NCBI GenBank assembly: GCA_003599755.1
Contig: QZJO01000001.1
Span: forward strand, 5,222-69,221
Length of the DNA stretch: 64,000 bases
Source of the DNA: Candidatus Parcubacteria bacterium
Lineage (GTDB): Bacteria; Patescibacteriota; Minisyncoccia; Sungbacterales; SURF-37
Reading direction: 5' to 3'
Part shown: one piece after another, positions 1,731 through 46,861 of the stretch
Layout of the letters: each line of letters opens with the position of its first letter
Position numbering within the stretch: position 1 is the first letter of the stretch
Translations under genes and position numbers: made by a program
Notes under the pieces: generated by a model
The model's input: the letters and a program-made list of their open reading frames with translations, nothing else
Database searches by the model: none
What the model was told of the DNA's origin: nothing

Positions 1731-1755
1731 AGTCCGGAGCTCGCGCGCTGGGAGT

Positions 1756-1877
1756 CCCGTTAGAGATAACGTTCATCTTCGCGCTAGACTTACCGAGTAT
1801 GAGAGTGGGCCAAGCGTATGGCGCATCTGGCATAATTTACGGAAGTGCTTGGATCGGCGCTTTCTATCTCTAACGGG
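1756..1877. repeat. Intergenic inverted-repeat element, copy 1 (arms CCCGTTAGAGATA / TATCTCTAACGGG, about 95 bp between them)
   Basis: Perfect 13-nt inverted arms at 1756-1768 and 1865-1877. The right arm is followed by ATGAAT, identical to the murJ start context. Confidence 0.5.
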
Positions 1878-1883
1878 ATGAAT

Positions 1884-1997
1884 CCCGTTAGAGGCCGCGG
1901 TCGCGTGCTTTTTTAGAGCACCTGCGCATACGCCATTAGTACTTATCAGTGATTATCGAACAGGCCGACGGTACGACCGCGACCTGCCTCTAACGGG
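1884..1997. repeat. Intergenic inverted-repeat element, copy 2 (CCCGTTAGAGG / CCTCTAACGGG), 3' arm directly abutting the murJ ATG
   Basis: 11-nt perfect inverted arms at 1884-1894 and 1987-1997. The ATG of murJ starts at 1998 (CTAACGGG-ATG). Confidence 0.5.
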
Positions 1998-3701
1998 ATG
2001 AATATCCCTTTCCTGAACCGGGAAATCGTCTCATTCCATGCCGCAGCCCTGGTGATCGGGGGTGCGGCTTTGGTGTCCAAACTCCTCGGCCTCATGCGCG
2101 ACCGGCTGTTGGCCGCGCGGTTTGGGGCGGGCGATGCGCTCGACGCGTACTATGCGGCGTTCCAGCTGCCCGATTTGCTCTATACGATCCTCCTGCTCGG
2201 CGCGGCCTCGGCCGCGGTGCTGCCCGCATACCTTGGCGCGCGCCGGGTCGATGCGAAAACGGCGGAACGGTTTCTCGGCAATCTTCTGACGCTCTTCGGC
2301 GCGACCGCGATTGCGGGCGCGCTAGTACTGTTTGCGCTCGCGCCCGAATTGCTGCGATTGTTAGTTCCGGGATTTGATCCCGAGAAGTTGGCAATGGCAG
2401 TCGGGCTTACGCGGATCATGGCTCTGAACGTCCTGCCGCTCGGTATCGCCGGAATACTCGCGAGCGTGCTGCAGGCCCATCAGCGGTTTATCGCGTTCGC
2501 GCTGCCGCCCATCGTGTATAACGTCGGCATTATCATCGGTATTTTGCTGTTTACGCCCGCACTCGGCGTCGCGGGGCTCGCCTGGGGCGTGGTGTTCGGC
2601 GGTGCGCTGCAGGTCATCGTCGTGCTGCCGGCGTTTTTCGGCCTCGGCATCCGCTACCGGCCGCGGTTCTCGCTAGCCGATCCGGCGCTTCGCCAGGTGC
2701 TCGCGACGTCCCTGCCGCGGGTGCTTGCGCTTTCGTTCGGGCAATTGACGCTGATCGCGCTCGCGGCGATCGCGTCGTTATTCGCATCGGGTTCCCTAGC
2801 GGCCTTCCGGCTCGGTGCGAATCTCATGTACGTGCCGGTCGGCCTCTTCGGCGTCAGTTACGCGCTTGCCGTATTTCCGAAGCTTTCGGATGCCTCGTTG
2901 GCGCGCGCCGGCGAGGCATTCACGAACCACTTCGTAGCCGGATTCCGGACGATTTTGTTCTGGACCTTACCGGCTGCGGCTCTCGCCATGGTGCTCCGCG
3001 CGCATATCGTGCGCGTCGTGCTCGGTAGCGGCGTATTCGACTGGACTGACACGCGCCTCGTTGCCGCGATTATTGCCGCGATCGCGATCGCCGTGGTGTC
3101 CGAAAGCATCGCGCCGCTGGTTCTGCGCGCGTTTTATGCGCTCGGGCGCACGCGCGAGCCGCTCATATGGAATTTGCTGTCGTCGTCGCTTGCGGTCGTC
3201 GTCGCGCTCCTGCTTTCCGCATGGTTTGTCCGGGCGCCGGAGGTGCTGGAACGTATTGCGGGCGTATTTCGCATCCGGGATATTCCGTCGCCGACCATTC
3301 TTGCGGTAGCGTTCGGGTTCGCGCTCGGCTCGGCAGTCAACGCGCTTATGCTCGTGTTGGTGCTGCGCCGCGCCGTACGACATGAATTCGGCATTCGCCT
3401 TCGGTTCGGCACCACGGATCTGGCCGGCATGCTTGGCGCGGCAGTACTCGCGGCCGTTGTGGCCTGGCTCGTGTTGCAGCCGTTCCCGTCGCTCGTGGCT
3501 ACCGATACGTTCTCCGGCATACTGCTGCAAGGCGTGGTCGCGGGCGTTGCCGGTATGGTCGTCTACGGCCTGATTCTCTTCGGCCAAAAGAATCCGGAAC
3601 TGTTCGGCTTTTGGGAAAGCGTCCGGCGGCGTCTCGTCACGCCGCGGCGCGCGCCGCAGGTATTCGAGACCGAAAAGCTCGACGGCGATCTGTCTCGTTA
3701 G
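1998..3701 (+). CDS. murJ: Lipid II flippase MurJ (MviN family)
   Basis: 567 aa, about 14 TM helices. The N-terminus 'FHAAALVIGGAALVSKLLGLMRDRLLAARFGAGDALDAYYAAFQLPDLLY' is the canonical MurJ signature. Confidence 0.85.
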   Translation: MNIPFLNREIVSFHAAALVIGGAALVSKLLGLMRDRLLAARFGAGDALDAYYAAFQLPDLLYTILLLGAASAAVLPAYLGARRVDAKTAERFLGNLLTLFGATAIAGALVLFALAPELLRLLVPGFDPEKLAMAVGLTRIMALNVLPLGIAGILASVLQAHQRFIAFALPPIVYNVGIIIGILLFTPALGVAGLAWGVVFGGALQVIVVLPAFFGLGIRYRPRFSLADPALRQVLATSLPRVLALSFGQLTLIALAAIASLFASGSLAAFRLGANLMYVPVGLFGVSYALAVFPKLSDASLARAGEAFTNHFVAGFRTILFWTLPAAALAMVLRAHIVRVVLGSGVFDWTDTRLVAAIIAAIAIAVVSESIAPLVLRAFYALGRTREPLIWNLLSSSLAVVVALLLSAWFVRAPEVLERIAGVFRIRDIPSPTILAVAFGFALGSAVNALMLVLVLRRAVRHEFGIRLRFGTTDLAGMLGAAVLAAVVAWLVLQPFPSLVATDTFSGILLQGVVAGVAGMVVYGLILFGQKNPELFGFWESVRRRLVTPRRAPQVFETEKLDGDLSR

Positions 3702-3867
3702 AAGCAGACCCCGGTAGTATACCGCGCAAGCTCGGTAACTACGGGGCGAGACGCGGTGTATAGATAGACCTTTATCATAGAGAGTCCCGCAGCCAAATCC
3801 ATGAGGGTTTGTGGTAACGGGATCGCGATTTCGATCGCCGCGCATAGCGATCGGGGCTTCTAACAAG
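3694..3867. repeat. Weak member of the GTTAGAAG inverted-repeat family (CTCGTTAGAAGC ... GCTTCTAACAAG), overlapping the murJ stop
   Basis: 12-nt inverted arms with 1 mismatch, about 150 bp apart. The interior contains GTAACGGGAT. Confidence 0.25.
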
Positions 3868-4760
3868 ATTTGCATCACTGACGGGCCGGGTCAATATTTT
3901 ATATTCATTGCACATTGATGTTTTACCCGTTACCATAAAAATATGGCTCGGGCTAGGTTTGATTTACCTATTGCTACCGTAAAAAGCCTCTACTGGGAAC
4001 GGGGTTTTTCTCTCGCAAAAATAGGCACCCGTTTTGGGTGCTCATGGAGTACTGTCGCGAATCGTTTGCGGGAGCACCATATTCCTTTGAAGAAAAAGAC
4101 GGAAATGAAAGTACGCTATCAAAAACGGTCATTCATCGGTTCGCTCGAGGAAATGGCGTATTTAGTTGGTTTCCGACTCGGAGATCTGAATGTCTACCGG
4201 CCTTCGATCAATTCAAAAATCGTAGTGGCGCGCTGCCACACTACGGTATCCATGCAAGCAAATCTTATTCGGTCGCTTTTTAAGAAATATGGCGGAGTGC
4301 GAGTTGTCCGTTCCAGTAACGGCATTACCATAAATTGCTTTCTGAATTTATCGTTCGGATTTTTGTTACCAAAAATTTATCCGCAATGGATTCAGCCGCA
4401 ATCAAAACCAATGGCTGCATTCACTGCCGGATATACCGATGCTGAGGGGTCGTTTGGTGTATATCAAGGAAGAGGGCGTTTCAAGCTCGATTCGTATGAT
4501 TATCAGATATTGCGAAATATATATCGTTTCTTGATTATCCAAGGAATTCATGCAAAGTTTTGGTGTATTGCGAAGCGAAATACAGCAAATATCAATGGCG
4601 GACGATGGCGCCACGATCTTTGGCGAATCAACGTCAATGAGGCGAAATCCTTGGTTAAATTTATTCGAATATTGTTGCCCCATTTAAGACATCATAACCG
4701 TATTCAACAAGCGCATGCAGTACTGAAAAATATCCAATCCAGATCCTCATTCACATGAAT
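3868..4760 (+). mobile_element. Low-GC (about 40%) insertion carrying a free-standing homing-endonuclease gene
   Basis: Abrupt GC drop relative to flanking genes (murJ, lepA about 63%). The segment ends exactly at the lepA start codon. Confidence 0.45.
3943..4758 (+). CDS. LAGLIDADG-family homing endonuclease-like protein (double-motif) with N-terminal HTH
   Basis: Two LAGLIDADG-like motifs: 'LVGFRLGDLNV' (about aa 64-74) and 'FTAGYTDAEGSF' (about aa 160-171, with the acidic catalytic residue). N-terminal HTH 'FSLAKIGTRFGCSWSTVANRLRE'. 271 aa. AT-rich codon usage unlike the host. Confidence 0.5.
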   Translation: MARARFDLPIATVKSLYWERGFSLAKIGTRFGCSWSTVANRLREHHIPLKKKTEMKVRYQKRSFIGSLEEMAYLVGFRLGDLNVYRPSINSKIVVARCHTTVSMQANLIRSLFKKYGGVRVVRSSNGITINCFLNLSFGFLLPKIYPQWIQPQSKPMAAFTAGYTDAEGSFGVYQGRGRFKLDSYDYQILRNIYRFLIIQGIHAKFWCIAKRNTANINGGRWRHDLWRINVNEAKSLVKFIRILLPHLRHHNRIQQAHAVLKNIQSRSSFT

Positions 4761-6551
4761 ATTCGGAACTTTGTAATTATCAGCCATGTTGATCACGGCA
4801 AGTCCACGCTTGCCGACCGGCTCTTGGAATTGACCGGCGCGGTGGAACGCCGGCGCATGCGCGAACAGTTTCTCGATCAGATGGAACTCGAGCGTGAGAA
4901 GGGGATCACGATCAAGATGCAGCCCGTTCGGATGCTCTGGCAGCCGCGCGGGGCAGAGCCGCCCTACATGCTGAATCTGATCGATACTCCCGGGCACGTG
5001 GATTTTTCGTACGAGGTATCGCGTGCGCTTGCCGCGGTGGAAGGCGCGATTCTCTTAGTGGACGCGACCCAGGGTATCCAGGCCCAAACCCTTGCGAATC
5101 TGGAGCTCGCGCGGCGCGAGGGGCTTGCCATCGTGCCGGCCGTCAATAAAATCGATCTTCCGGCCGCGCGGCCCGATGAGGTGGCCGAAGAAATCGCGTC
5201 GCTCCTCGAAATGCCGGCTGCCGACGTATTGCGTATATCCGGGAAAACCGGGGCGGGCGTGCCCGAACTCTTGGCCGCCATGGTGCGCGCCGTGCCGCCG
5301 CCGAGCGCCCGCGCCGACAAGCCCGCGCCCATGCCGCGCGCGCTGATCTTTGATTCGCACTTCGATCCCTATCGCGGCGTGATCGCGCATGTGCGCGTTA
5401 CGGACGGCACGTTTCGCCACGGGGCTAAGGTATGGATGGCGGCAACCCGTACGACCGTGGAGCTGATGGAGATCGGCACCTTCGCGCCCGAACTCAAGGC
5501 CGGGACGGAACTGGGCGCGGGCGAGATCGGCTATTTCGCGACCGGCCTCAAGGAAGCCGATGCGGTGCGCGTCGGAGATACGGTCCTCGGCGAAATGGGT
5601 GCCGACGCATGGCGGTTTCCGGGATACCGCGAGCCCGCCCCCATGGTATTCGCGAGCTTATATCCGGAAGATGCGGATATGTACGAGCGGCTGCTCGATG
5701 CGCTGAAGAAGATCCGCCTCAACGATGCCGCGTTGTCGTTCGAACCTGAATCGTCCGACGCGCTCGGCCGCGGGTTTCGCGCCGGATTTTTGGGCATGCT
5801 GCATATGGAAATCGTGGCCGAGCGGCTGCGGCGCGAATATGGCATCGCGCTCGTCACTACCATTCCTTCGGTGGCCTACCGTGTCATCCGGATCAACGGC
5901 GCGGAGGAATTCATCTACGCGGCAGGCAAGTTCCCGGATTTGCACGCGGTGCGCGAGGTGCGCGAGCCCTGGGTGCGCCTGGAGATCATCACCCCGCAAC
6001 GGTTCATGGGCAGCATTTTGGAATTAGTGCGCAAAGTCCGCGGCACGCCGGGCGACCAGCGGTACCTCGGCGGCGACCGGATGCATATCACGGCCGAAGC
6101 GCCGTTGCGCGACGTGCTCGTTGATTTTTTCGATGCGCTCAAAAGCGCGACCGAGGGATATGCGTCGCTTTCCTACGAGCCGATCGGGGAGCGGCTGGGC
6201 GACCTCGTACGCCTCGACATCGTCATCGCGGACGAGCGCGAGGATGCGCTCGCGCAAGTCGTGCCGTCCGAACGCGCGTATCAGGCGGGCCGCGCGATCG
6301 TGGCCAAGCTCAAGGAGCTCTTGCCCAAGGCCCTCTTCCCGATACCGCTTCAAGCAGCGGCCAATGGCCGCATCATCGCGCGCGAGACGATTCCGGCGCT
6401 GAAAAAAGACGTTACCGGGTATCTGTATGGCGGGGACCGCACGCGCAAGATGAAACTTTGGAAAAAGCAGCAGCGCGGGAAAAAGCGCCTGACCGAACGG
6501 GGGCGCGTAGAAATACCGCCCGACGTGTTTTTGCAAATTTTGAAGCGTTAA
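4755..6551 (+). CDS. lepA: Elongation factor 4 (LepA)
   Basis: 598 aa. 'NIRNFVIISHVDHGKSTLADRLL' G1 motif, 'LIDTPGHVDF', LepA C-terminal domain. Confidence 0.9.
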   Translation: MNIRNFVIISHVDHGKSTLADRLLELTGAVERRRMREQFLDQMELEREKGITIKMQPVRMLWQPRGAEPPYMLNLIDTPGHVDFSYEVSRALAAVEGAILLVDATQGIQAQTLANLELARREGLAIVPAVNKIDLPAARPDEVAEEIASLLEMPAADVLRISGKTGAGVPELLAAMVRAVPPPSARADKPAPMPRALIFDSHFDPYRGVIAHVRVTDGTFRHGAKVWMAATRTTVELMEIGTFAPELKAGTELGAGEIGYFATGLKEADAVRVGDTVLGEMGADAWRFPGYREPAPMVFASLYPEDADMYERLLDALKKIRLNDAALSFEPESSDALGRGFRAGFLGMLHMEIVAERLRREYGIALVTTIPSVAYRVIRINGAEEFIYAAGKFPDLHAVREVREPWVRLEIITPQRFMGSILELVRKVRGTPGDQRYLGGDRMHITAEAPLRDVLVDFFDALKSATEGYASLSYEPIGERLGDLVRLDIVIADEREDALAQVVPSERAYQAGRAIVAKLKELLPKALFPIPLQAAANGRIIARETIPALKKDVTGYLYGGDRTRKMKLWKKQQRGKKRLTERGRVEIPPDVFLQILKR

Positions 6552-6554
6552 TTC

Positions 6555-6600
6555 GAAAACCCGCCTGCTTGAAATGGAGCGGAGCGGGTTTATTTTTATT
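6555..6600 (+). terminator. Rho-independent terminator after lepA
   Basis: AAACCCGC...GCGGGTTT hairpin followed by TATTTTTATT. Confidence 0.5.
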
Positions 6601-13144: not shown

Positions 13145-13220
13145 TGCACCCCGTTAGAAGTCCGTTCCGCCTGCGGCGGAATGGCAGACGCCTGTGGCGT
13201 CTTACTTCTAACGGGGTGCA
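13145..13220. ncRNA. Structured inverted-repeat element (17-bp outer stem plus two internal hairpins) in the dnaE/rnhB divergent spacer. Member of the CCCGTTAGA family. Candidate small RNA or regulatory site.
   Basis: TGCACCCCGTTAGAAGT ... ACTTCTAACGGGGTGCA perfect 17-nt arms. Inner hairpins TTCCGCC-TGC-GGCGGAA and AGACGCC-TGT-GGCGTCT. Confidence 0.35.
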
Positions 13221-14900: not shown

Positions 14901-16036
14901 ATACCATGAATAACCGCACCACGGTTATCGTGTTCCTCGCGATTTTTGCCGTCGGCATCGTGCTTTTCGTCGTGCTGCCGTTCATATTTTTTCGCGGGCC
15001 GAGCGAGCCCGAAGAGCCGGGCGTCCCGCCGCCATCGGGCGAGCCGGCCGACGTTCCGACACAAGGGGTATTCCGCTCCGACAACGGCGGCCGGACATGG
15101 GATCCGGCAGATGCGATCGAGGGCCGGATCGGATCCATTGCCGGGTTCCGGATCCGCCGGCTGATCCCGCACCCGACCGATCCGGACACGCTGTTCGCCG
15201 CGACCGAATCCAACGGGCTTTGGGAATCGCGGAGCCGCGGAGCGCTCTGGGCCCAGATTGCGGATGACGAGAGCATGGACGGCGGCCTGGCGCCCATGGC
15301 CGATGTGTTGTCGGTGGCGATCAATCCCGACGATCCGCGCGAATGGTATGTCGCGGCCTACCAAGACCGGCGCGGCCGCCTGTTCCGATCGCTCGATGAC
15401 GGCAATTCGTTTACCGAAGTGTACCGCACGCCGAGCGAGCGCTTCGGCGTCTTTGACGCGTACTATGATTCCGATACGCGGGCGGTCTGGATTATCACAG
15501 GCCAAGGCGGACTATTAGAGAGCAGGGACCGCGGCGAGACATGGCGCGTGGTGCGCTGGTTCGCCGACGGCCTGATCCGGATGCTCGTGAGTCCGCGCAA
15601 CGAGGCCGTACGGTTTTTGGTAACGCCCGAAGGCCGGGTGTTTCGTACCGAGGACCGTGGGGCAAGCTGGGTGGACATTACGCCGAATTTCCGGCAGTTT
15701 TCTGGCGCGACTGCCCAGCAGGCCTGGTTTATCGACAGCGACGGCAATTTGTATCTGGGTTCAGCTTACGGCCTGCTCCGTTCGCGCGACCACGGCGATA
15801 CGTTTACCGCGCCGCCGCTGATCGTGCCGCCCGAATCGCTGCCCGTGCGCGCCGTTGCCGCGCATCCAGCCGAGCCATTCCGCGTCGCCGCTGCTGCAGC
15901 AAACCAGCTGTACCGCTCCGATGACGACGGACTGAGCTGGTCCATCCTCATATCGCCGCCGGGTTCCAGTATCACGGACCTTCTCTTCCATCCGACCGAT
16001 CGATCCGTTATCTTTGCCATTACTACGAGCCGCTAA
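14897..16036 (+). CDS. Membrane-anchored BNR/Asp-box repeat beta-propeller protein (Ycf48/sialidase-like fold)
   Basis: N-terminal TM, then repeated S/D-x-D-x-G-x-T/S-W Asp-boxes: DNGGRTWD, RDRGETWRV, EDRGASW, RDHGDTF, DDDGLSWS. Confidence 0.55.
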   Translation: MNTMNNRTTVIVFLAIFAVGIVLFVVLPFIFFRGPSEPEEPGVPPPSGEPADVPTQGVFRSDNGGRTWDPADAIEGRIGSIAGFRIRRLIPHPTDPDTLFAATESNGLWESRSRGALWAQIADDESMDGGLAPMADVLSVAINPDDPREWYVAAYQDRRGRLFRSLDDGNSFTEVYRTPSERFGVFDAYYDSDTRAVWIITGQGGLLESRDRGETWRVVRWFADGLIRMLVSPRNEAVRFLVTPEGRVFRTEDRGASWVDITPNFRQFSGATAQQAWFIDSDGNLYLGSAYGLLRSRDHGDTFTAPPLIVPPESLPVRAVAAHPAEPFRVAAAAANQLYRSDDDGLSWSILISPPGSSITDLLFHPTDRSVIFAITTSR

Positions 16037-16045
16037 CGTCCCCGC

Positions 16046-32588: not shown

Positions 32589-32654
32589 CGGCGGTCCGAT
32601 GGCTATCGGACCGTTTTCGGCTGAATGCACGGAATTGTATAATCGCGGCATATG

Positions 32655-32731
32655 CCCCGTTAGAACTTTCCGCTGACAGGGCGAATAAGACCGCGTTTTA
32701 TCCGTATTTGTCCAGGGGGATTTTTAACGGG
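32655..32731. repeat. Weak copy of the CCCGTTAGA / TAACGGG inverted-repeat element, 3' arm abutting the lysS ATG
   Basis: CCCCGTTAGAAC ... TTTTTAACGGG-T-ATG (lysS start 32733). Confidence 0.3.
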
Positions 32732-32732
32732 T

Positions 32733-34202
32733 ATGGCTCTCGAAGATATTCGCCGCGAACGGCTAGAAAAGCTTTCTCGGTACGAAGCAGGCGGCAATGA
32801 CGCCTACCCGGCAACGGTGCGGCGGACGATTTCCATTGGCGATCTTCGGAAAAAATTCGCCGCGCTCGCCAAATCCAAGAAGCGCGTGGCGGTAGTCGGT
32901 CGCATCCGGGCGCTGCGATCCCACGGCGGGGCGACATTCGGCGATCTGGAGGACGGTTCCGGCAAAATCCAATTGTATTGGAGCAAGGATGAGCTCGGCG
33001 GTGCCTACGAAAAATTTCTCGATGTCTTAGACATCGGCGATTTTGTCGAGGCGACCGGCGCGCCGTTCGCGACCAAGCGCGGCGAGCAGTCGGTGCGCGT
33101 GAGCGCGGCGCGCATTGTTGCGAAGTCCCTGTTGCCTCTGCCGGAAAAATGGCACGGCTTGAAAGACGTGGAAGAGCGGTTCCGCACGCGGGAGTTGGAT
33201 TTGGTAATGAACGAGGAAATTCGAGAGCGATTTCGCATGCGCTCGCGCATCATTCGAGCGTTGCGCGCGTTTTTAGACAAAGAAGGATTCCTCGAAGTGG
33301 AGACGCCGCTTTTGCAGCCGATCGCCGGCGGCGCGATCGCGCGTCCATTCGTAACGCATCACAACGCGCTGGACAGCGATTTGTATTTGCGCGTCGCGCC
33401 GGAGCTTTATTTGAAGCGGCTCTTGGTCGGCGGATACGAGCGCGTGTATGAGCTGGGGAAGAGCTTTCGGAACGAGGGGATTGATGCGACGCACAACCCC
33501 GAATTTACGAGTTTGGAGTGGTATGCCGCGTATTGGGATGAAGAACAGATGATGGATTCGGTCGAACACTTGATGCACGAACTTCTGAAGGCGCTTGATA
33601 AAAAGGGCCGCATCGTATTCGACGGCAAAGAGATCGAATTTGAAACGGAATTCCCGCGGATTGAATTCCGCGAACTCCTGAAGCGGCACGCCCTCATCAT
33701 GGATTACGACGCCGAGACGCGCGACTCGCTTGCCCAGCGCGCACGGCAGTTCGGCATCGATCCGGGGCCGTATGAATCGAAAGGAAAGATCGCTGATGAA
33801 ATTTACAAGAAGGTTTGCCGGCCCAAGGTGCAGAATGCCACGTTCATCACGCATCACCCCCTCGATATTTCGCCTCTTGCGAAGAAAGCGCCGGACCAGG
33901 CCGACGCCGTCCGCCGTTTTCAGCTCATTGCCGGCGGCCTGGAAATCGTCAATGCGTTTGCCGAGCTTAACGATCCGCGCGACCAGCGGGAACGGTTCGA
34001 GGCGCAAGCGGACCATCGCGGCCGGGGGGACGACGAAGCGCATCCCTTTGACGCAGCCTTCGTGGAAGCGCTTGAATACGGGATGCCGCCGGCTGCCGGG
34101 GCGGGCATCGGCGTGGACCGCCTCGTTATGCTATTTGCGGATGTCCGGAATATTCGGGAAGTGGTCCTATTCCCGACGCTCCGGCCCCGCGAATCCCGTT
34201 AG
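32733..34202 (+). CDS. lysS: Lysyl-tRNA synthetase, class II
   Basis: OB anticodon domain plus class II core ('FLEVETPLLQ', 'ELGKSFRNEG', 'GIGVDRLVML'). Confidence 0.9.
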   Translation: MALEDIRRERLEKLSRYEAGGNDAYPATVRRTISIGDLRKKFAALAKSKKRVAVVGRIRALRSHGGATFGDLEDGSGKIQLYWSKDELGGAYEKFLDVLDIGDFVEATGAPFATKRGEQSVRVSAARIVAKSLLPLPEKWHGLKDVEERFRTRELDLVMNEEIRERFRMRSRIIRALRAFLDKEGFLEVETPLLQPIAGGAIARPFVTHHNALDSDLYLRVAPELYLKRLLVGGYERVYELGKSFRNEGIDATHNPEFTSLEWYAAYWDEEQMMDSVEHLMHELLKALDKKGRIVFDGKEIEFETEFPRIEFRELLKRHALIMDYDAETRDSLAQRARQFGIDPGPYESKGKIADEIYKKVCRPKVQNATFITHHPLDISPLAKKAPDQADAVRRFQLIAGGLEIVNAFAELNDPRDQRERFEAQADHRGRGDDEAHPFDAAFVEALEYGMPPAAGAGIGVDRLVMLFADVRNIREVVLFPTLRPRESR

Positions 34203-34207
34203 CCCAT

Positions 34208-35536
34208 ATGCTTGATCCGAAATTCATCCGCGAACATCCCGATCGCGTGCGCGCCGGCCTCAAGGCCAAAGGCGTCGAGTTCGACGTAGACGCGTTTCTG
34301 AAACTCGACGAACGCCGCCGCGCGAAAATCGGGGAGGTGGATCAATTGCGCGCGAAACAGAATACGGCGTCGGACGCCATCGCTACACTCGCGCCCGCTG
34401 AGCGCGAGACAACACTCGGCCAAATGCGCGATCTCAAAACCAACCTCACCAAACTAGAAGACGAACTCAAAACGATCGAAGCCGAATACGATGAGCGCAT
34501 CCGCCAGATTCCGAATCTGCCGCTCGATGACGTGCCGCACGGCAAGGATGACCGCGATAACGTGGTGCTTCGAGAAGTAGGCGAGCGGCCGGTGTTCTCG
34601 TTTCCGGTGCGCGATAATATCGAGCTCGGGGAAGAGCTCGATATTATCGATACCGCTCGCGCGGCAAAGATTTCGGGCTCGCGTTTCGGCTATCTCAAGC
34701 GCGAGGCCGCGCTCTTGGAATTCGCGCTCGTGCAGTATGCGTTCTCCGTACTAACGAACCGCGCCGCGATCGCAGATATTCTCAAGGAGGAAGGGCTGGA
34801 TCTTTCCGATGAACCCTTTGTGCCCGTCGTGCCGCCGGTTATGGTACGGCCTGAGGTCATGCGCGCCATGGGGTACATGGAACGGGGCGGCGATGAAATT
34901 TACCGGGTTGCCGATGATGATCTTTTGCTTGTCGGCACGTCGGAACAATCTATCGGGCCGATGCATATGAACGAAATGCTTGCCGAAGAGTCCCTGCCGC
35001 GCCGCTACGTCGGCTTCTCGACCTGCTTTCGCCGCGAGGCCGGATCGTACGGTAAAGATACGCGGGGGATTTTGCGCGTGCACCAGTTCGATAAAGTCGA
35101 GATGTTTTCGTTCACGCTGCCGGAATCATCCCGCGCGGAACACCGACTGTTCCTCGCCCTGGAAGAGCGGTTTTTCCGCGGGCTTGGCATTCCGTACCGC
35201 GTACTCAACATCTGCGCCGGGGACCTCGGGGACTCGGCTGCGGCAAAATTCGACATCGAAGCGTGGCTGCCCGGCGAAAACGCCAAGCAAGGCCAGTACC
35301 GCGAGGTAACTTCAACGTCGAACACGACCGATTTCCAGTCGCGCCGGCTCAACGTCAAAGTTCGGCGCGCCAACAATCAGGCCGAGCATCCGCATCTCGT
35401 CAACGGCACGGCATTTGCCATCGGCCGGACGCTGATCGCGATTCTCGAAAACTATCAGCGGGAAGACGGCTCAGTGGAGATCCCTGAAGTACTGCAGTCG
35501 TTTTTGCCGGGCATCACTGAAATCCGGCGGACATGA
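34208..35536 (+). CDS. serS: Seryl-tRNA synthetase
   Basis: N-terminal coiled coil, class II motifs 'FRREAGSYGKDTRGILRVHQF', 'GTAFAIGRTLIAILEN'. Confidence 0.9.
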   Translation: MLDPKFIREHPDRVRAGLKAKGVEFDVDAFLKLDERRRAKIGEVDQLRAKQNTASDAIATLAPAERETTLGQMRDLKTNLTKLEDELKTIEAEYDERIRQIPNLPLDDVPHGKDDRDNVVLREVGERPVFSFPVRDNIELGEELDIIDTARAAKISGSRFGYLKREAALLEFALVQYAFSVLTNRAAIADILKEEGLDLSDEPFVPVVPPVMVRPEVMRAMGYMERGGDEIYRVADDDLLLVGTSEQSIGPMHMNEMLAEESLPRRYVGFSTCFRREAGSYGKDTRGILRVHQFDKVEMFSFTLPESSRAEHRLFLALEERFFRGLGIPYRVLNICAGDLGDSAAAKFDIEAWLPGENAKQGQYREVTSTSNTTDFQSRRLNVKVRRANNQAEHPHLVNGTAFAIGRTLIAILENYQREDGSVEIPEVLQSFLPGITEIRRT

Positions 35537-36642: not shown

Positions 36643-36718
36643 CGGGATTGCCGCGCCAGGAGCGCCGCGTGGTGCCAAGCCAGTACCATCCATTCGGTGC
36701 GCCCGGTACAATGGAGCC

Positions 36719-37543
36719 ATGACTTCTCCGAGCCGGGTCGTATATCTCCGGTCCGAACTGCCCAGGCGGCGCAAGCGCATGCATGTTCCGTGGCGCGCCT
36801 TGGGCGTTATCGTGTTGATTGCGGTGGTACTCGGCGGCGCGACCGCACTTACCTATGCGCCGTGGTTGCGCCTTGGCGAAATTGCGGTTGCGGGCGTGGA
36901 TGAGGCGCATCGGGAGGCGGTGGCAGCCGCGGTGCGCGAGGAATTTTCGGGTTCGTGGATGTTTTTGCCGCGCGACAGCATCGTGGTGGTTTCGAAAGAC
37001 GAAATAGCCGCGGTTGTGGCCCGGGAATTTCCAAGCATGAAAAATATCCGCGTGGCCCGCGTATTCCCCAACGGCATCCGCATCGCAGCGGACGAACGAG
37101 AACTCTGGGGGATGTATTGCACGCGGACTGGTGCGGCCGGGGACCGCGGCCAATGCGCGTATTTGGATCGCGACGGCACGGCATTCGAAGAAGTCGCCGG
37201 CGTGAGCGGGTGGCTTCTGCCGGTGATTTATGGTTCGTCGCATCCGCGCGCCGGCGAGCGCCTCATAGCGAACGAAACCGTGCAGCTGTTTGAGGCGGCG
37301 GCCGTGGCGATCGGCAGAACCGGCGGCGGGTTGCTGACGCTCGAGCTTGCGACCGCGACGCCGGGCGATCTGGTGCTCGGGCTTGCCGATGGCTGGGAGC
37401 TGTGGGTCGCCGAAACCGCCGAGCCCGCGCACTGGATGGGGATACTTACCGTGCTTTTGGAAAATGAAATTAAGAATCGCGCCACATCGCTCGAGTACGT
37501 GGATCTTCGCTTCGGCAACAAAGTGTTTTACAAATATCGTTGA
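36719..37543 (+). CDS. FtsQ/DivIB-like cell-division protein (POTRA domain)
   Basis: Basic N-terminus, single TM 'ALGVIVLIAVVLGGA', periplasmic POTRA-like domain. The real start may be MHVPWRAL at about 36779. Confidence 0.5.
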   Translation: MTSPSRVVYLRSELPRRRKRMHVPWRALGVIVLIAVVLGGATALTYAPWLRLGEIAVAGVDEAHREAVAAAVREEFSGSWMFLPRDSIVVVSKDEIAAVVAREFPSMKNIRVARVFPNGIRIAADERELWGMYCTRTGAAGDRGQCAYLDRDGTAFEEVAGVSGWLLPVIYGSSHPRAGERLIANETVQLFEAAAVAIGRTGGGLLTLELATATPGDLVLGLADGWELWVAETAEPAHWMGILTVLLENEIKNRATSLEYVDLRFGNKVFYKYR

Positions 37544-37608: not shown

Positions 37609-39555
37609 CTACGGCATCTGGGGCGGCACGGGTGGGAGTTCATAGATGAAGATCGAGGTGCCGGCCCGGGCCACGGGGCGGAAGGGTTTGAGCCAGGGAT
37701 AGCGGTCTTCCGGCCGCTGGTGGAATCCCGGGGCAGGCACGCCGTATGCCTGCATAAGGAACGTGCCGGATATCGCGAACCAGCCGCCTTCGGGCGGCCG
37801 GCCGCGCGCCGACCACCAGGGCTCGAACGCGGGTCCGAGTTCGTGGCGCGGGCTGCCGCCGCCGAAGTAGTCGAGGCGCACGGTTTGGATATTGCGCTCG
37901 CGCACGAAATCGCCAAGACGTAACAAATCCTGACCCCAGTCGTAATTGGAATCCGTGGCGATTTTATAGCCGTCGGTCACGCCGCCGCCGAGTTCATTGT
38001 AGTACGACAGATAGTACGGGTACGCTGCGACAACGCTCGCCAGCTGCCAGATGACGAGCGCGCCGACGACCATGTAGCGCGGCAGGGACGTGACATAGAT
38101 CGCGATTGCACGGCGGATCCATTCGCCCCAGCTTTTCACGTCGGTCTGCTTCCACGAGCGGAGCCAAGCGACGATTTCTTTCGAAACGAGCATGAATATG
38201 AACGGGAACGTGGGTAACACGTGGCGCACGCCGATGTTCAGGGGCGAGGTGATGCTCGAAGTCCAGTAGATGCCGATGAACACGAGTGCCGAGAATTGGA
38301 TGAAGTGGTCGCGCGTCCAGGTAAGCAGGGCTTCGAGATTCCATCGCGGGGATCGGTACACCCGCCGCACCGCGAAGATGAGCGCCAAAAGTGTCAGGAT
38401 ATGGAGCGCAAGCGGCTCTTTGAGCAGATACAGGATCGGGAAATACGTGCGCGTGCCGGCGGCCGATACCTCGCCGAGGAAGTATTGCGTATTGCCGCCC
38501 GCTGCCCGCTGCAGCACCATGAACAGGCCCGTGAGGTATTGCGCGAGCGGCCGGGTGAACGGCGTTTCGATGAGCGCGGTGTTGAAATTCACCCACGAGC
38601 GGAAACGGAATGAATTGAGGTTGATGACCGCGTCGCGCATCTGGGAAAGCGGTATCGCGCGGATCGCGGCATCGCGTTCGGCCCCGCCCGGCATGTTGGC
38701 CACCGCGCGGATCTCTTCGGCCGAGTATGCCGTGCCGTCGGGCCTCAGCGAGAGCGCGGGATAATCCCACACGTGCCATATATAGACCACCCAAATCAGA
38801 ATGATGCTGACGCCAATAGCGGCGCCCGCCTTCAGCGAGTTTTTGACGAATAGCGCGAACCGGTCGGGCCACGAGAGCTGTACTTTCGCCAGAGCCCACG
38901 CGACGAGCAATATGCCCCAGACGGGGATAAGGAGGATGAGAGAGAATTTCAGAAGCTGCGCGGTGCCGAACGCAAGGCCGGCGATCAAGATATTTTTGGG
39001 CGATGGTTCCTGGAGGAATTTGAGAAACGCGGCAATGCCGATGAAAAACGCGATCGCCGCGCCCAAATCCGTGGTGACGAAGCGCGAGTGCGTGATGAAC
39101 GTGGGCGACGCGGCGTAGAGAAATACCGTCAGGAGCGCGACGCGCTCGCCGAAATGGCTTTTGGTGAAGCGCCACAGCATCCAGCCGAACACGCCGGCCA
39201 AAAGAATGAGCGGCAGGCGCATGAGCCAAAGAATTCGAGCAGGATCGTTACCCGCTTCATAGAGGAAGATCGCGCCTTGCGTCCATTGGCCGTTGATGTC
39301 TTCGCGCCAGGACTGCGTGTCGGTAGGGAAGCGGACGTCGGCGAATACGAGCGGCAGCGCGGCCAGGTCCTTGATGAGCGGCGGATGCTCCGGATTCAGG
39401 CGATAGTCCTTTTCGAATACGTAGGCGTAGCCCGCCGGCACGTGCGCGAGCTCATCCATGATGGCAGCGTCGTTCCGTACCGACGCGGCCATGACGATGA
39501 CCATCGCGGCAAGGATCAGAATCGGCGTGGCCTGGCTGCGGAGCGCTGCGATCAT
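37609..39555 (-). CDS. GT-C fold glycosyltransferase, family 39-like (ArnT/PMT-type, lipid-linked sugar donor)
   Basis: About 13 TM helices, N-terminal loop 'MDELAHVPAGYAY' (DE motif), large C-terminal periplasmic domain. Confidence 0.7.
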   Translation of the reverse strand: MIAALRSQATPILILAAMVIVMAASVRNDAAIMDELAHVPAGYAYVFEKDYRLNPEHPPLIKDLAALPLVFADVRFPTDTQSWREDINGQWTQGAIFLYEAGNDPARILWLMRLPLILLAGVFGWMLWRFTKSHFGERVALLTVFLYAASPTFITHSRFVTTDLGAAIAFFIGIAAFLKFLQEPSPKNILIAGLAFGTAQLLKFSLILLIPVWGILLVAWALAKVQLSWPDRFALFVKNSLKAGAAIGVSIILIWVVYIWHVWDYPALSLRPDGTAYSAEEIRAVANMPGGAERDAAIRAIPLSQMRDAVINLNSFRFRSWVNFNTALIETPFTRPLAQYLTGLFMVLQRAAGGNTQYFLGEVSAAGTRTYFPILYLLKEPLALHILTLLALIFAVRRVYRSPRWNLEALLTWTRDHFIQFSALVFIGIYWTSSITSPLNIGVRHVLPTFPFIFMLVSKEIVAWLRSWKQTDVKSWGEWIRRAIAIYVTSLPRYMVVGALVIWQLASVVAAYPYYLSYYNELGGGVTDGYKIATDSNYDWGQDLLRLGDFVRERNIQTVRLDYFGGGSPRHELGPAFEPWWSARGRPPEGGWFAISGTFLMQAYGVPAPGFHQRPEDRYPWLKPFRPVARAGTSIFIYELPPVPPQMP

Positions 39556-39596
39556 GATGTCAGTATACCAAACTATCCCCGTATCAGGCGCCGCAG

Positions 39597-42269: not shown

Positions 42270-42405
42270 GAATATATCCTGAAACGCTGGTAAAAGGCCG
42301 ATTTCCAGAGGCCTTTGAAAACCGCATAGATAGGTAAACAGGAGGTATCGAAACCCCCAACGCAGCACCAACCTGCGCGCTTTTGCGCGTACGAGGAGGA
42401 TGAAA

Positions 42406-43416
42406 ATGGCCGATCGAGGCATCGGATTCTTAAAGGAACCGGAGCTTACCCGGAAGTGGAAGGTGCGCATTAATGCCGCTCCGCCCCGGTGGGGCGACCA
42501 TGGCCCCGAGTCCATGGTGTCCGTCGTTCTCATGAACGAGGCCGGCGAAGGCGTGGAGGGGGAGCTCATCCTTCGGATCAACGGCGATGAGTCGGAGATC
42601 AAGACGAAGGACAACGGCACGACGAAGAAACTGGCGACCGGTCTGCGCATCGGCACGAACGCGTTTGCGGCCCATCTCAAGGGCCGGCCGTCCGTGCACG
42701 ATACGGTAGAGCTGGATGTCGAGCCGGAAGTCGGTCTTGCGGTTGCAGGTCCGACTTCAACCGAAACCGATGTGGAAGCTACGGCGACCGCAACGGTGTC
42801 GCTGGCCAGCAGGCCGATCAAGAACGGCGAGGTTCAGTTTTACCTGGACGGCGCCAAGAGCGGTGCCCCGCAGCCGATCGATACCGACGGCAGCGCGAGC
42901 TACACGTTCACCGGTCTGAAGAAGGGAACGCACGGCATCTGGGCGGTGCTGAACGGCACGACGCTGCGTTCCAAGACCGTGAACGTTGAGGTTAAGGAGC
43001 AGAAAGCGAAGAAGCTCGCCGAGCCGTTTCCGCAGGCGGAAGGGGATGATGGTGTCTATATCATCTCATTCGTCCTGACTCACGAAGATGGTACGGCGGC
43101 GGTCAACGAGCCGGTTCGGTTGCTGCTTAATCGCTACGGCCGCAAAGCCGACGAGGGCAGCGACATCGTCGATAGGAATACCGACGATCACGGCCGCTTC
43201 CGGTATCTGCTGACGTTCACCGAGCGAGAGTGCGATGTCATGGTGCAGGTACGCGGCTGGCAGAAGGACAGCATCAAAAATCTGCACGGCCCTATGGGGC
43301 GCAGGCCCGTGGAGCTGGTCGAGCCGCGCGAAGAGGACGTGAATCGAGGAATCATTCACGCTGCGCTCGCTGCGTTGCGTCGACAGCGTGAAAAGAACCG
43401 CGAAATGAGGTCCTAA
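42406..43416 (+). CDS. Hypothetical protein with bacterial Ig-like (Big) beta-sandwich domains, no signal peptide
   Basis: 'VQFYLDGAKSGAPQPIDTDGSASYTFTGLKKGTHGIWAVLNGTTLRSKTVNVEV' is a typical Big-domain pattern. Strong SD. The track start 42400 is too close to the SD, so 42406 is preferred. Confidence 0.5.
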   Translation: MADRGIGFLKEPELTRKWKVRINAAPPRWGDHGPESMVSVVLMNEAGEGVEGELILRINGDESEIKTKDNGTTKKLATGLRIGTNAFAAHLKGRPSVHDTVELDVEPEVGLAVAGPTSTETDVEATATATVSLASRPIKNGEVQFYLDGAKSGAPQPIDTDGSASYTFTGLKKGTHGIWAVLNGTTLRSKTVNVEVKEQKAKKLAEPFPQAEGDDGVYIISFVLTHEDGTAAVNEPVRLLLNRYGRKADEGSDIVDRNTDDHGRFRYLLTFTERECDVMVQVRGWQKDSIKNLHGPMGRRPVELVEPREEDVNRGIIHAALAALRRQREKNREMRS

Positions 43417-43436
43417 TACTTCAGCGAGGAGGAGAT

Positions 43437-44207
43437 ATGTTCGAGCGGGGGGATCTGCTTGTTCTTGCCGGGATTGCAGCGCTTGGCTGCGTCCTTGGCG
43501 TCATCTGGTCGTTGGTCCGACGGGGGCATCTCGCCGGACTGATGCGCTCGGTACGTAACCGAACCGGGCGGATCGTGGCACGAGTGTCGCAATCAGTTCG
43601 CTGGCTGGCTGCGCGCGCGCGAGGCGCTGTACAAATCCTGTGGTTTCGCGCGAGGCCGTGGACGATACGGCATGCGCGTCGCCGAAGAGATCGCATGGCG
43701 CTTCGCGCGTTCTATCTCGTTCGCTGGCTCTGCGCCACGAACAACAACCGCCTCAAGGCCATGTGGATCGTTACGGTCGTGTGGTTCCTCTGGAACTGCC
43801 TGATCATCGGCGTCGGGCCGTCCGCGTCTGAAGCGCCGACGCAAAGCTTCCACTACCCGCACTATCGGACGCCCTCTCCGGCACCAACCCACGTCCTACA
43901 GTCCCTGTGGGACATCTACGGCTTCTGGTCATGGGCGCTCTGGTTTCCATGGCTTCTCGCGACCCTCGTCTACACGCCCATCGCGTTCCGCGATGAGGTG
44001 CAGAACGCATTTCGTCGCGCGACGCAGAAGTTCCGCGAACGGCGCGGCGAGGCGCAGCAGGTGCGGGTGGTGCCTCAGCCAGGTGCTCGGCATCCTGTTC
44101 CCCAGCCGGCTGGCGGAGGCGGGTTAACGCTCGCGCAGTACCTGACCTTCGAGTTCATCACGGACTTCATCCAGGAGATAATCGCACACCGCGTTTTCAC
44201 GCGGTAG
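43437..44207 (+). CDS. Hypothetical 3-TM membrane protein with Arg-rich cytoplasmic loop
   Basis: TM helices at about aa 6-25, 109-130 and 160-185. SD GAGGAGG 4 nt upstream. Confidence 0.5.
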   Translation: MFERGDLLVLAGIAALGCVLGVIWSLVRRGHLAGLMRSVRNRTGRIVARVSQSVRWLAARARGAVQILWFRARPWTIRHARRRRDRMALRAFYLVRWLCATNNNRLKAMWIVTVVWFLWNCLIIGVGPSASEAPTQSFHYPHYRTPSPAPTHVLQSLWDIYGFWSWALWFPWLLATLVYTPIAFRDEVQNAFRRATQKFRERRGEAQQVRVVPQPGARHPVPQPAGGGGLTLAQYLTFEFITDFIQEIIAHRVFTR

Positions 44208-44220
44208 GAGGCAGCTGCGC

Positions 44221-45807
44221 ATGAATCTTCCGACGTTCACCTGGCGGCAGATCTGGGTCACCGGACTGCTGGCCATCATCGCGAGCTTCACGATGTGGAA
44301 GGGCGGCCTGACGACCGCCTTCTGGACGACACTCGGCATCTTCGGCCTGGCCGTTCTCATGGGTCTGGCGGGGATGGTGGGTGGCGTTGGTGGTCGGATA
44401 GCGGCCATCGCGCTCATGATCTGGGCGATCATGTCGGTGGTGTATCCCGCGGTCGGCGCCGCGTTCAGGGCGGAATGGCCGATGCTTTCCTGGGCTCTCC
44501 ACAACAGTAAGGCCATCAAGGACATGGAGCTGGCCGACTGGGTCAATCCAAGCGCGTCTCGCGCGCGGCTCGGTCTCGCTGATCACTGCAACAAGATGGA
44601 GGATCTGCGGGGGGAATACGTCGAGAACGTACTTCTCGAGCGGTATAACGAGACGCGACGGCGCGCCATTCCGGAGAAACCCGGCTACTGGGCGAGCTGG
44701 GCGATCTGGCTTGGTTGGCGGGAAGCGCCAAAGCCGGTCTTCCCCATGCCGCAGCGCTTCGCGGACATGAAGCTTGGCTTCAAGCTCGAGCGCGTGAAGA
44801 AGCCCGAGGTTCGAGACGGCAAGGGCAACCTCGTGTCGGCAGTAGTGACGGAACAGTACGAGGCCTCGATCGCGGATGTGGTCATGATCATCGAGAACGA
44901 GCGCGAGGAGTGCCGCGCGCTGTATGCGCGCGCCGGCAAGCCTGAGCTGCCCGACCGGGACAAGAACGGGAAGTCGTTGGAGTCGCTGACCAAGCACTTC
45001 TCCGATGACCCGCGCCAGTGGCTCCGCGATGTGTTCGTGGGGCCGTGGGCCGTCTGGTCGTTCGCGTTGCTCATCATTGCGGGGCTGCTCCTCGGCCTCG
45101 TGACCAGGCGCGTCTCGTTCAGCATCGCGTTCGGATACATCATCATCACGCTGATCATGGCGGCTGCCATCGACTGGGCTGCCAGTGAGGAGCGCGAGTG
45201 GTTCAAGGGCAAGGCCTACGGAGCAGTCACGACGCGGCACGAGCTTCCTCAGAAGCGCGGCGGCCGTCCGGATGTACCCGGTTCGTATTCGTACGAACGG
45301 TCGGTCCCGCCCACGCTCATCACCCGCGAGGATGATGCGCTCATCGTACGCATCGACGGTTCGCTGCGGCACGGGCACGTCGTTGCAAAGCTCGAGCCGG
45401 GCCAGACCGCGGTGGTCACGTACCTGGGCGGCATGATCGCATACAACTCGCACGGCGACCGGTTCCTGCCATGCGGCCGAGACCATCGCCGGCTCCAGCA
45501 GTGGGAGGTGTTTCCGTACTCTCCAGAACTGCGGCCGTTCGCGATCGGGGTATACCTCGATCCGCCCGGCCTGGGGTCGATGAGCGATCCCACGCAGTTG
45601 CCGTGCGGCAAGGAGCCGCTGAGGATCAAGAACGCCGGTACCGTGCCGGCCAAGCTCGTCTTCATCTATAACACCGCCATGCAGTATCGAGAGGTGCTGG
45701 ACGGCAAGGTGCGGACGGACGGCTACACGTACGCCGGCTGGGACTGCGCAGTGGACCCGGAGAAGAACTGCGCGCGGTTCAAGATCGTCGTGAAGGAGTC
45801 GTCGTAA
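44221..45807 (+). CDS. Hypothetical 5-TM membrane protein with two large extramembrane domains (C-terminal domain Cys-containing)
   Basis: 3 N-terminal TM, about 200-aa soluble domain, 2 TM, then about 220-aa C-terminal domain with 5 Cys. SD TAGGAGG 9 nt upstream. Confidence 0.5.
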   Translation: MNLPTFTWRQIWVTGLLAIIASFTMWKGGLTTAFWTTLGIFGLAVLMGLAGMVGGVGGRIAAIALMIWAIMSVVYPAVGAAFRAEWPMLSWALHNSKAIKDMELADWVNPSASRARLGLADHCNKMEDLRGEYVENVLLERYNETRRRAIPEKPGYWASWAIWLGWREAPKPVFPMPQRFADMKLGFKLERVKKPEVRDGKGNLVSAVVTEQYEASIADVVMIIENEREECRALYARAGKPELPDRDKNGKSLESLTKHFSDDPRQWLRDVFVGPWAVWSFALLIIAGLLLGLVTRRVSFSIAFGYIIITLIMAAAIDWAASEEREWFKGKAYGAVTTRHELPQKRGGRPDVPGSYSYERSVPPTLITREDDALIVRIDGSLRHGHVVAKLEPGQTAVVTYLGGMIAYNSHGDRFLPCGRDHRRLQQWEVFPYSPELRPFAIGVYLDPPGLGSMSDPTQLPCGKEPLRIKNAGTVPAKLVFIYNTAMQYREVLDGKVRTDGYTYAGWDCAVDPEKNCARFKIVVKESS

Positions 45808-46073: not shown

Positions 46074-46185
46074 GCGGTGGCGTGTTGGGGCGCAGGGGAT
46101 AGCGCGGCATGCGCCGCGCGCCGCGGCCGTGGTATCCTAAAAGCAGGATAAGCCGCCGCTAACGTCCGTAATCGGCCGAGATTCT

Positions 46186-46791: not shown

Positions 46792-46816
46792 CGGAGGGCT
46801 CGTGCGAGTAGATTAC

Positions 46817-46848: not shown

Positions 46849-46861
46849 AACAAAATGGAAT

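Follow-up and report, generated by a model that had tools for sequence, protein, structure and literature searches.

Correia elements are small repeats which are confined to Neisseria, carry 26-bp repeats at their ends and are flanked by a TA duplication. REP/REPIN sequences and elements derived from IS200/IS605 depend on HUH enzymes for their movement, leave no target-site duplication and stand next to a fixed tetranucleotide. Correia elements lie upstream of genes, where their repeats pair in the mRNA and where promoters, integration host factor (IHF) sites and RNase III cleavage affect expression (PMC10969869). Rickettsia palindromic elements (RPEs), which resemble MITEs (miniature transposable elements with inverted repeats), occupy small and gene-dense genomes, and their insertions keep open reading frames (ORFs) intact (PMC10969869). 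The element described here was found in a stretch of 64,000 nucleotides from Candidatus Parcubacteria bacterium (NCBI GenBank assembly GCA_003599755.1, contig QZJO01000001.1, positions 5,222 to 69,221 of the forward strand), hereafter called the window, in which pairs of inverted arms fill the spacers upstream of several genes including murJ, ychF, rplU and lysS.

With a probability of about three in four, this element is a non-autonomous DNA transposon, i.e., a MITE, which has 11-nt terminal inverted repeats (TIRs), a 4-bp target-site duplication and a subterminal hairpin and which lies on the start codons of bacteria of the Candidate Phyla Radiation (CPR). The features of a MITE found here comprise the TIRs, the target-site duplication, a small size without a transposase gene, empty sites and similar copies within one genome, some of them unlinked and nearly identical. 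Together with a terminal base that becomes a base of the start codon, they bear out one of the hypotheses of the original prediction, according to which the arms might belong to a MITE carrying its own start context. We read it as a MITE that is adapted to, or selected at, the start codons of dense genomes with little Shine-Dalgarno usage.

Terminal Repeats, Target-Site Duplication, and Structure

The arms had been given a length of 10-13 nt. They are indeed inverted copies of each other, but the repeat measures 11 nt and reads 5'-YCCCGTTAGAG ... CTCTAACGGGR-3', the terminal T..A or C..G pair included. This length follows from 132 copies with exact arms, 95% of which have complementary bases immediately beyond their two 10-mers. 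In the same copies, the left and right flanks agree at 73-83% for each of the four positions that come next and are unrelated farther out, which therefore marks a 4-bp target-site duplication. An identical 4-mer is present on both flanks in 63 of 90 CPR copies, and the duplications preserved in the window are TGAA, TGCA, TATG, CTCA, and again TATG. In other genomes, the element usually has a length of 95-125 nt, a range which is partly set by the gap allowed in the search.

The two ends of the element are not alike. One of them is built as ACGG-stem-loop-stem-CCT-R-TCTCTAACGGGR, the other consists of the repeat alone. A second class of copies, to which the one at 1883-1998 of the window belongs, has the 5' half of the hairpin stem adjoining the 5' repeat, by which the whole element becomes one long stem. 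Base pairing was followed through an alignment of 66 copies, in which the terminal pair is UA in 47, CG in 18 and UG in one of the copies, positions 12 and 13 switch between AU and GC and between UA and CG, and the pairs of the hairpin switch among AU, UA, CG and GC, with three to five pair types each. Paired cells reach 93.6% in this alignment, compared with 84.4% in shuffles and 34-49% with slid partners. The hairpin stem covaries even between related copies of one genome, e.g., those of the loci L058 and L076, and the copies in the window fold with z-scores of -2.7 to -9.9.

The interior is variable, AT-rich and otherwise unconserved, with scattered arm-like TAACGG(G) strings and an AT-rich centre that often holds TATAAT-like strings. 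It has no coding capacity, as ORFs from the relic ATG left of the element stop within it and show no frame bias. Searches against Rfam gave no matches at the gathering threshold in the whole window and only chance-level matches around the copies at permissive thresholds. Membership in an Rfam family, including ribosomal-protein leaders and ribozymes, was rejected because no curated model matches.

Copies in the Window

A covariance model built from 66 copies in other genomes was run on the 64-kb window with filters off. Combined with a reading of the spacers, it revealed five clear and two degenerate copies of 68-176 nt, which amounts to roughly one copy in every 9 kb, and unfiltered it returned no match beyond these seven in the whole window. 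The copies have sizes of 68-124 nt, with one degenerate copy of 176 nt, and every one of them follows the layout of an arm, 46-102 nt and the inverted arm. All seven places at which this architecture had been predicted are the element or a degenerate copy of it, as judged from the covariance model. The arms were also correctly expected to exceed chance frequency. Allowing one mismatch and counting both strands, the window has 10 occurrences of CCCGTTAGAG vs. 2.2 expected, a count reached by none of 100 shuffles, while TAACGGGA occurs eight times (1.0 expected) and CTAACGG 12 times (4.9 expected).

Two copies stand in tandem upstream of murJ. The first (1755-1878, plus strand, 51 bits in the covariance model) has its TIRs at 1755-1765 (TCCCGTTAGAG) and 1868-1878 (CTCTAACGGGA) and a subterminal hairpin at 1841-1864; its right flank TGAA (1879-1882) is common to the second copy and its left flank reads GGAG, so that the duplication is not preserved. 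The second, a copy of the long-range-stem class (1883-1998, plus strand, 55 bits), has TIRs at 1883-1893 and 1988-1998 and is framed by TGAA at 1879-1882 and 1999-2002. Its final TIR base, A1998, is at the same time the A of the murJ ATG (1998-2000). The same situation is found at the minus-strand gene ychF, where the copy at 56458-56575 (minus strand, 55 bits) has, in plus-strand coordinates, TIRs at 56458-56469, which include a 1-nt insertion, and at 56565-56575, as well as the duplication CTCA at 56454-56457 and 56576-56579. Here, the A of the ychF ATG (56458-56456) pairs with T56458 of the plus strand, a relic ATG remains at 56580-56578, and TAGGAT lies 7 nt upstream of this relic. Directly beyond the duplication, at 56580-56590, the sequence TCCCGATTATCC resembles the start of another 5' arm, and on the gene strand the relic site reads AATCGGGATGAG, similar to the end of an arm. 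The stretch 56580-56590 may represent the remains of an older tandem copy.

The whole start codon lies inside the duplicated TATG right after the arm in rplU and lysS. Upstream of rplU, which encodes the ribosomal protein L21, the copy at 60782-60878 (plus strand, 32 bits) is bounded by TCCTGTTAGAG (60782-60792) and TTCTAACGGGA (60868-60878) and by TATG at 60778-60781 and 60879-60882, with the rplU ATG at 60880 and a relic TAGATT box 8 nt upstream of the left ATG. The short and degenerate copy before lysS (32655-32731 with a model match to 32732, plus strand) is marginal with 10 bits and an E-value of 1.5. It comprises the arms CCCCGTTAGAA (32655-32665) and TTTTTAACGGG (32721-32731) and the duplication TATG at 32651-32654 and 32732-32735; the lysS ATG is at 32733, and the relic promoter TGTATAAT directly precedes the left TATG, at a distance of 8 nt from the relic ATG. 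At the other end of lysS, a solitary half-arm GAATCCCGTTAGCCCATATG occupies 34190-34210, its TAG being the lysS stop codon, and the ATG of the next gene follows 5 nt on. This half-arm could be the remnant or excision scar of a copy, or a chance occurrence.

The expectation that the downstream arm touches the ATG thus holds for murJ, ychF, rplU and lysS, but it fails for the short 68-nt copy in the dnaE/rnhB interval (13149-13216, strand unassigned, 30 bits, fold z-score -9.9), which is 19 nt away from the dnaE ATG (13129, minus strand) and touches no start codon. This copy has the TIRs CCCCGTTAGAA and TTCTAACGGGG, a 17-nt perfect inverted repeat and the duplication TGCA at 13145-13148 and 13217-13220. 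The remaining degenerate copy at the 3' end of murJ (3693-3868, minus strand) is marginal as well (12 bits, E-value 0.5); its arms are CTCGTTAGAAGC (3694-3705) and GCTTCTAACAAG (3856-3867), and the murJ stop codon TAG (3699-3701) lies within the first of them. Downstream of this copy, the murJ/lepA interval contains a free-standing ORF of 271 aa (3943-4758, plus strand) with a LAGLIDADG-like domain (Pfam, E-value 6.6e-06). It has no tblastn match in the whole locus L121 of a relative, the murJ-lepA interval included, and no homologue is encoded in 120 element loci. This ORF is probably an independent mobile gene.

Related motifs had further been proposed upstream of frr, gtrA and trxB, for which a relation to the element is not supported. 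The 12-mer CCGCTAACGTCC put forward for frr and gtrA is not enriched in the window, with 10 matches at up to two mismatches vs. 7.1 expected. It occurs exactly at 16030-16041 and 46156-46167, upstream of frr and the GtrA-family gene, and two exact 12-mers are unremarkable in 64 kb.

Mobility and Distribution

The element is, or was, mobile, as demonstrated by empty sites and by the relations between copies. The window and the loci L123 and L124 of relatives have the same order of a tetratricopeptide repeat (TPR) gene and murJ, and the window alone has two copies at this site. In L123, whose MurJ is 59% identical to that of the window, the TPR-murJ spacer is about 17 nt long and without the element, and in L124 (MurJ 42% identical) a short spacer is likewise without it. 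The locus L121 carries a copy in the thrS-dnaE interval, where the window has none, and is free of this element upstream of murJ. Furthermore, one metagenome-assembled genome (MAG) contains two copies (L078 and L094) on different contigs and in different flanks, which have 99% identical interiors and the same TAAA duplication. Considering all pairs, an identity above 0.70 was found for 14 of 63 pairs from the same genome, and the maximum for pairs from different genomes is 0.725 (n = 600). The copies in the window differ from one another as much as from those of other genomes (0.37-0.55) and are therefore old; they are probably no longer mobile.

One genome per species was scanned for the pattern CCCGTTAGAG-N75-105-CTCTAACGGG, covering 596 Gb. 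At least 120 loci with exact arms were obtained, compared with about 17 expected by chance according to our own arithmetic. Among the loci listed, 70 are labelled as Patescibacteria (Saccharibacteria and many Parcubacteria lineages), 16 as Omnitrophota and six as Planctomycetota, and others belong to Elusimicrobiota, Nitrospirota, WOR-3/Stahlbacteria, Desulfobacterota-type bacteria and unlabelled MAGs. The viral contigs of IMG/VR gave no match to the element. The specificity of the covariance model is reflected by a single match in 652 kb of loci collected by MurJ similarity, mostly of other bacteria, and this match is a copy in the closest relative of the window organism. At the DNA level, the window itself is matched best by contigs of Sungiibacteriota and Parcubacteria, so that it most likely stems from a GC-rich representative of the Patescibacteria. 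The element is widespread in ultra-small groundwater bacteria and not lineage-specific, as had been assumed; elements bounded by these 10-mers occur in seven or more groups of phylum rank. No recurring gene family was detected near the elements in the 120 loci, and no link to the LAGLIDADG domain emerged.

Placement at Start Codons

In 78 of 154 copies, an ORF of at least 60 codons starts at offset 0 from the 10-mer arm, compared with at most six copies at each of the offsets 1-12. Offset 0 means that the first base of the ORF is the terminal base of the repeat. CPR copies abut a start codon in this manner in 61 of 90 cases, and their duplications include TGAA (29), TGGA (12) and TGAG (6). Copies from Omnitrophota and other phyla are of the C..G-type, have TAAA duplications and are rarely situated at start codons. 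Removal of the element and one duplicate reconstructs the empty site, which is A (91%), T, G, R, A, i.e., A|TGRA, for the T..A-type and R-T-R-A-A for the C..G-type, without any mirror-image preference on the other side.

By means of the duplication, TG is kept on both sides of the insertion, and the rebuilt ATG or GTG takes its first base from the end of the right repeat, allowing the ORF to survive. The left flank retains a relic start codon in 58 of the 78 cases. Eight copies of the C..G-type have a relic ATG on the left and a working GTG on the right, which directly demonstrates that the element provides the working codon's first base. Stop codons of upstream genes are accommodated as well, either inside the duplication (TGA or TAA, 17 and 6 cases) or inside the arm (CCCGT-TAG, 18 cases, murJ at 3699-3701 among them). 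Moreover, two copies in a MAG of the Omnitrophota (locus L048, 6335-6424 and 6919-7020) are in-frame and stop-free insertions in prepilin leaders, placed between the first GFT and the real cleavage motif (...KRKHSLTG|FTLIE), and the 3' arm encodes S-L-T-G. The placements at starts, stops and pilins fit insertions that survive by keeping reading frames intact. An in-frame translated insertion at start codons was rejected on account of the missing frame bias and of internal stops, the two pilin cases of the Omnitrophota excepted. In another locus (L081, 642-745), a Shine-Dalgarno sequence, an ATG and the complete leader peptide MKQFRKRSLTG|FTIIE are all contained in the region of the element.

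Free TGRR sites in the CPR loci amount to about 2149 in intergenic DNA vs. 156 at start codons. Start codons hence represent about 7% of the available TGRR sites but 68% of the CPR copies, an approximately 25-fold excess which partly vanishes if the target is the 5-mer ATGRA, in which case a few-fold excess remains. The simplest interpretation of this position is a "safe haven", at which the preference for ATGRA and the terminal A would permit insertion in genomes with almost no free intergenic DNA. A general targeting of transcription start sites was rejected, as no -10 peak is present beside copies away from start codons.

Different elements have been encountered at the same place in related loci. 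Upstream of murJ, the loci L121 and L122 contain an element CATTTGTTTGTC...GACAAACAAATG (L121, ~6480-6575) that is flush with the murJ start codon, and L133 (~150-317) has, in the same position relative to murJ, another inverted-repeat element with the arms CCCCGTAATAC... and ...TATACGGGG and an ATGA duplication. Further repeat families thus seem to share the start-codon habit.

Host Context and the Predicted Leader

The genes next to the element had been described as devoid of Shine-Dalgarno sequences. Their absence was confirmed, yet it characterises the genome as a whole and its relatives rather than these genes in particular, given that Shine-Dalgarno-like motifs occur at background frequency among element-free CPR genes (22 of 255). 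Upstream of element-free CPR genes, TANNNT peaks at spacers of 6-7 nt (12% and 7% vs. a background of about 3.5%), and before the relic ATG it peaks at a spacer of 6 nt (9 of 55 cases). A TANNNT box 6-7 nt before the ATG marks leaderless or near-leaderless transcripts. Within the window, -10 boxes 6 nt before the ATG are seen at 36719 (TACAAT-GGAGCC-ATG, region 36700-36721) and at the gene start 39555 on the minus strand (TATACT-GACATC-ATG, 39553-39575). Three consecutive genes at 42400-45807 feature strong AGGAGG sites, and most genes of the window are without a Shine-Dalgarno sequence. Judged from these sequences, leaderless transcription looks common in the window organism.

Because Shine-Dalgarno sequences are scarce and the -10 box lies 6-7 nt before the ATG, the old promoter should start transcription at or near the relic ATG. 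If it still fires, only a few bases would separate the beginning of the transcript from the 5' repeat. At lysS, rplU and ychF, where relic promoters closely precede the 5' arm, transcription should accordingly run through the complete element and yield a folded leader, and the long-range helix in the 5' untranslated region (UTR), which had been considered as a hypothesis of its own, would probably follow from the MITE reading. In such a 5' leader, the arms would form a long stem, and the A of the real AUG would take part in its last pair. The relic ATG would open a short ORF ending within the element, and the gene would be translated by the usual Shine-Dalgarno-independent initiation of the host. 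The hairpin, predicted to lie 15 nt before the AUG, and the 5'-terminal stem may stabilise or regulate the message, or the leader may be processed off. We infer that insertion turns the element into a structured 5' leader, which may affect expression.

Of 43 copies that could be oriented, 39-40 have their hairpin end next to the start codon, and relative to stop codons no orientation bias was detected. Both repeat ends are equivalent for the rebuilding of an ATG, so that the bias requires either an oriented insertion mechanism or selection upstream of the AUG. Hairpin and orientation bias might reflect a requirement of the transposase or an effect at the RNA level, e.g., stabilisation of the 5' end. 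A terminator acting in the reverse orientation was considered as the cause of the bias and is not supported, since inspection of the aligned copies showed that the sequence after the hairpin is not T-rich.

A palindrome of another kind was noticed in a low-GC island at ~46800-51400 (0.49-0.54 vs. ~0.60 elsewhere). The island encodes a small winged-helix protein (46862-47146), a protein of 1005 aa with an LCAT-like alpha/beta-hydrolase region (47146-50163), an unannotated ORF of 141 aa and an AAA_28 protein. The palindrome, which is built on TTATTCTAATGTTCTTAAGAACATTAGAATAA, is perfect at 46817-46848 and recurs as an imperfect copy (89%) at 47115-47146, and each of the two ends just before a start codon. 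They look like an operator pair.

Alternative Explanations

Several points weigh against a MITE. No transposase gene bounded by these repeats was found in a search that covered about 200 fetched loci and IMG/VR, the large collections not being scanned for long elements, and no long repeat-bounded unit was seen in the fetched loci. Solo arms, considered as parts of an autonomous element, turned out to be chance matches or degenerate copies. The label is consequently based on anatomy and population evidence. In addition, MITEs do not usually keep a perfect 10-11-nt repeat across phyla while their interior varies freely, and this could point to a conserved host factor. The gene starts in the MAG loci are crude, as they were called from the longest ORF. 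Intergenic insertions should be less harmful than those at start codons, so that survival, or harmlessness, does not by itself obviously explain the start-codon excess, and active targeting or a benefit is needed. Finally, neither a fixed promoter nor a terminator was found that would account for the orientation bias.

One alternative is a mobile expression module, in which a MITE is kept at start codons as a portable 5' leader and not as a tolerated parasite, for a positive function, be it an outward promoter, a stabilising 5' stem-loop or an initiation context. Such a module is conceivable but rather unlikely. It would be in line with the strong orientation bias, which exists relative to start codons only, with the excess of start codons over available TGRR sites, with the covariation of the hairpin stem, including L058 and L076, and with the frequent TATAAT-like strings of the AT-rich centre; Correia elements provide a precedent for promoters and RNase III sites borne by MITEs (PMC10969869). 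However, no -10-like hexamer was found at a fixed distance from the element end or the hairpin, and a scan of the two murJ copies of the window for consensus promoters predicted none. A canonical fixed promoter was rejected for these reasons. The original prediction had likewise offered a core promoter or leaderless-start element, which is not supported either, as a -10-like hexamer at a fixed position inside was not found and direct reading of the arm itself revealed no TANNNT at the leaderless distance. Besides, intact relic promoters precede the element and would be enough, and copies in other phyla are rarely located at start codons.

Active targeting, the other way to explain the excess, would amount to a transposon lineage that homes to start codons by recognising A|TGRA in one orientation. 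It would act as a mobile cassette for 5' leaders, the RNA of which stabilises, regulates or is processed off. This proposal is speculative and appears improbable on the present evidence. The hosts would be dense CPR genomes, poor in Shine-Dalgarno sequences and rich in leaderless genes, in which the element would rebuild the start codon with its terminal base and provide a leaderless gene with a structured 5' leader that bears a hairpin. If true, it would constitute a bacterial counterpart to eukaryotic elements which target transcription start sites and a previously undescribed route to 5' UTRs in gene-dense genomes.

Much less probable is a role in RNA punctuation, by which an endonuclease would cut the transcript of the relic leaderless promoter at the 3' foot of the arm stem and thereby restore a leaderless mRNA beginning with 5'-AUG. 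The position flush with the start codon, seen as offset 0, would be accounted for, the A of the AUG is predicted to be the last base pair of a stable stem, and the host lineages are rich in leaderless-type promoters. To our knowledge, however, precise cleavage at the 3' foot of a stem of this kind is not known for any bacterial RNase, and no ribozyme or Rfam family matches. The ATG of rplU and lysS lies 1-2 nt past the arm and not at its last base, and copies of the C..G-type would give 5'-GUG. The cleavage of Correia repeats in mRNA by RNase III (PMC10969869) remains as a further point in favour.

Protein-binding sites, i.e., a paired operator for a global regulator, as was also suggested originally, or an invertible promoter switched by a site-specific recombinase, are very unlikely. 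Conserved inverted repeats flanking about 100 bp upstream of genes and an identical 10-mer across phyla around a variable interior would suit them, but they predict neither the 4-nt duplication of variable sequence nor the empty sites, the mobility and the copies inside coding sequences or at stop codons, the genes served are unrelated housekeeping genes, the assemblies show almost one orientation only (~40 of 43), and no recombinase or regulator gene is linked in the 120 loci.

Implications

The tiny genomes of Patescibacteria are thought to leave little room for mobile DNA, yet the window harbours a dense repeat family, which is shared with several other phyla of groundwater and sediment and which avoids the killing of genes by landing on the start codon and rebuilding it. 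A repeat shared this widely speaks for a transposase that is probably widespread itself. If active targeting is at work, the element would represent a new strategy of target choice for bacterial transposons. If it is selection, a structured insertion of 100 nt between promoter and ATG would be tolerated or even useful, which bears on initiation without Shine-Dalgarno sequences. For practical purposes, relic ATGs and short spurious ORFs have to be reckoned with when genes are called or annotated at copies of the element.

Comparison With Known Systems

With REP/REPIN sequences and elements derived from IS200/IS605, the element has in common that it is an abundant extragenic palindrome with a covarying, structure-conserved hairpin. 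A palindrome of this type was rejected because the 4-mers beside the element change from copy to copy but agree between its two sides; flanks of this kind imply a staggered cut. An integron attC site was rejected as well, as the ends read 5'-GTTAGAG ... CTCTAAC-3' on both strands here vs. 5'-RYYYAAC ... GTTRRRY-3' in attC. A lead for the transposase may be seen in the piggyBac/IS1380 type, whose DDE transposase produces a 4-bp T...A duplication and whose ends read CCC...GGG, a duplication length and ends that fit the element. The TTAA of that type differs from the TGAA, TGGA, TGAG or TAAA observed in this element, for which TTAA accounts for about one in 100 cases.

In behaviour, the element comes nearest to RPEs and to the Correia elements (CREE/NEMIS) of Neisseria. 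The Correia elements and the present one are both non-coding, about 100-150 bp long, equipped with TIRs and a target-site duplication and mostly found just upstream of genes. The differences are a 4-nt T-R-R-A duplication, an unrelated repeat sequence, an occurrence in several phyla and the lack of a fixed promoter in the present element. We know of no report of Correia elements on start codons or of their supplying a base of the start codon. The term "start codon" is absent from a 2024 review of MITEs (PMC10969869). In the literature searched, which did not extend to subscription journals, the arm sequences appeared only in unrelated primers, and nothing relevant on Patescibacteria or on start-codon MITEs was obtained. 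No previous description was thus found of a prokaryotic MITE that is placed at start codons and contributes their first base, an absence that is not proof.

RPEs offer the parallel for coding regions, the two in-frame prepilin copies of L048 being RPE-like. RPEs are typically translated as in-frame protein insertions, whereas the start-codon copies described here are untranslated and the gene is kept by a rebuilt start codon. As the repeats, the duplication and the hosts all differ, the element is a member of neither the Correia nor the RPE family.

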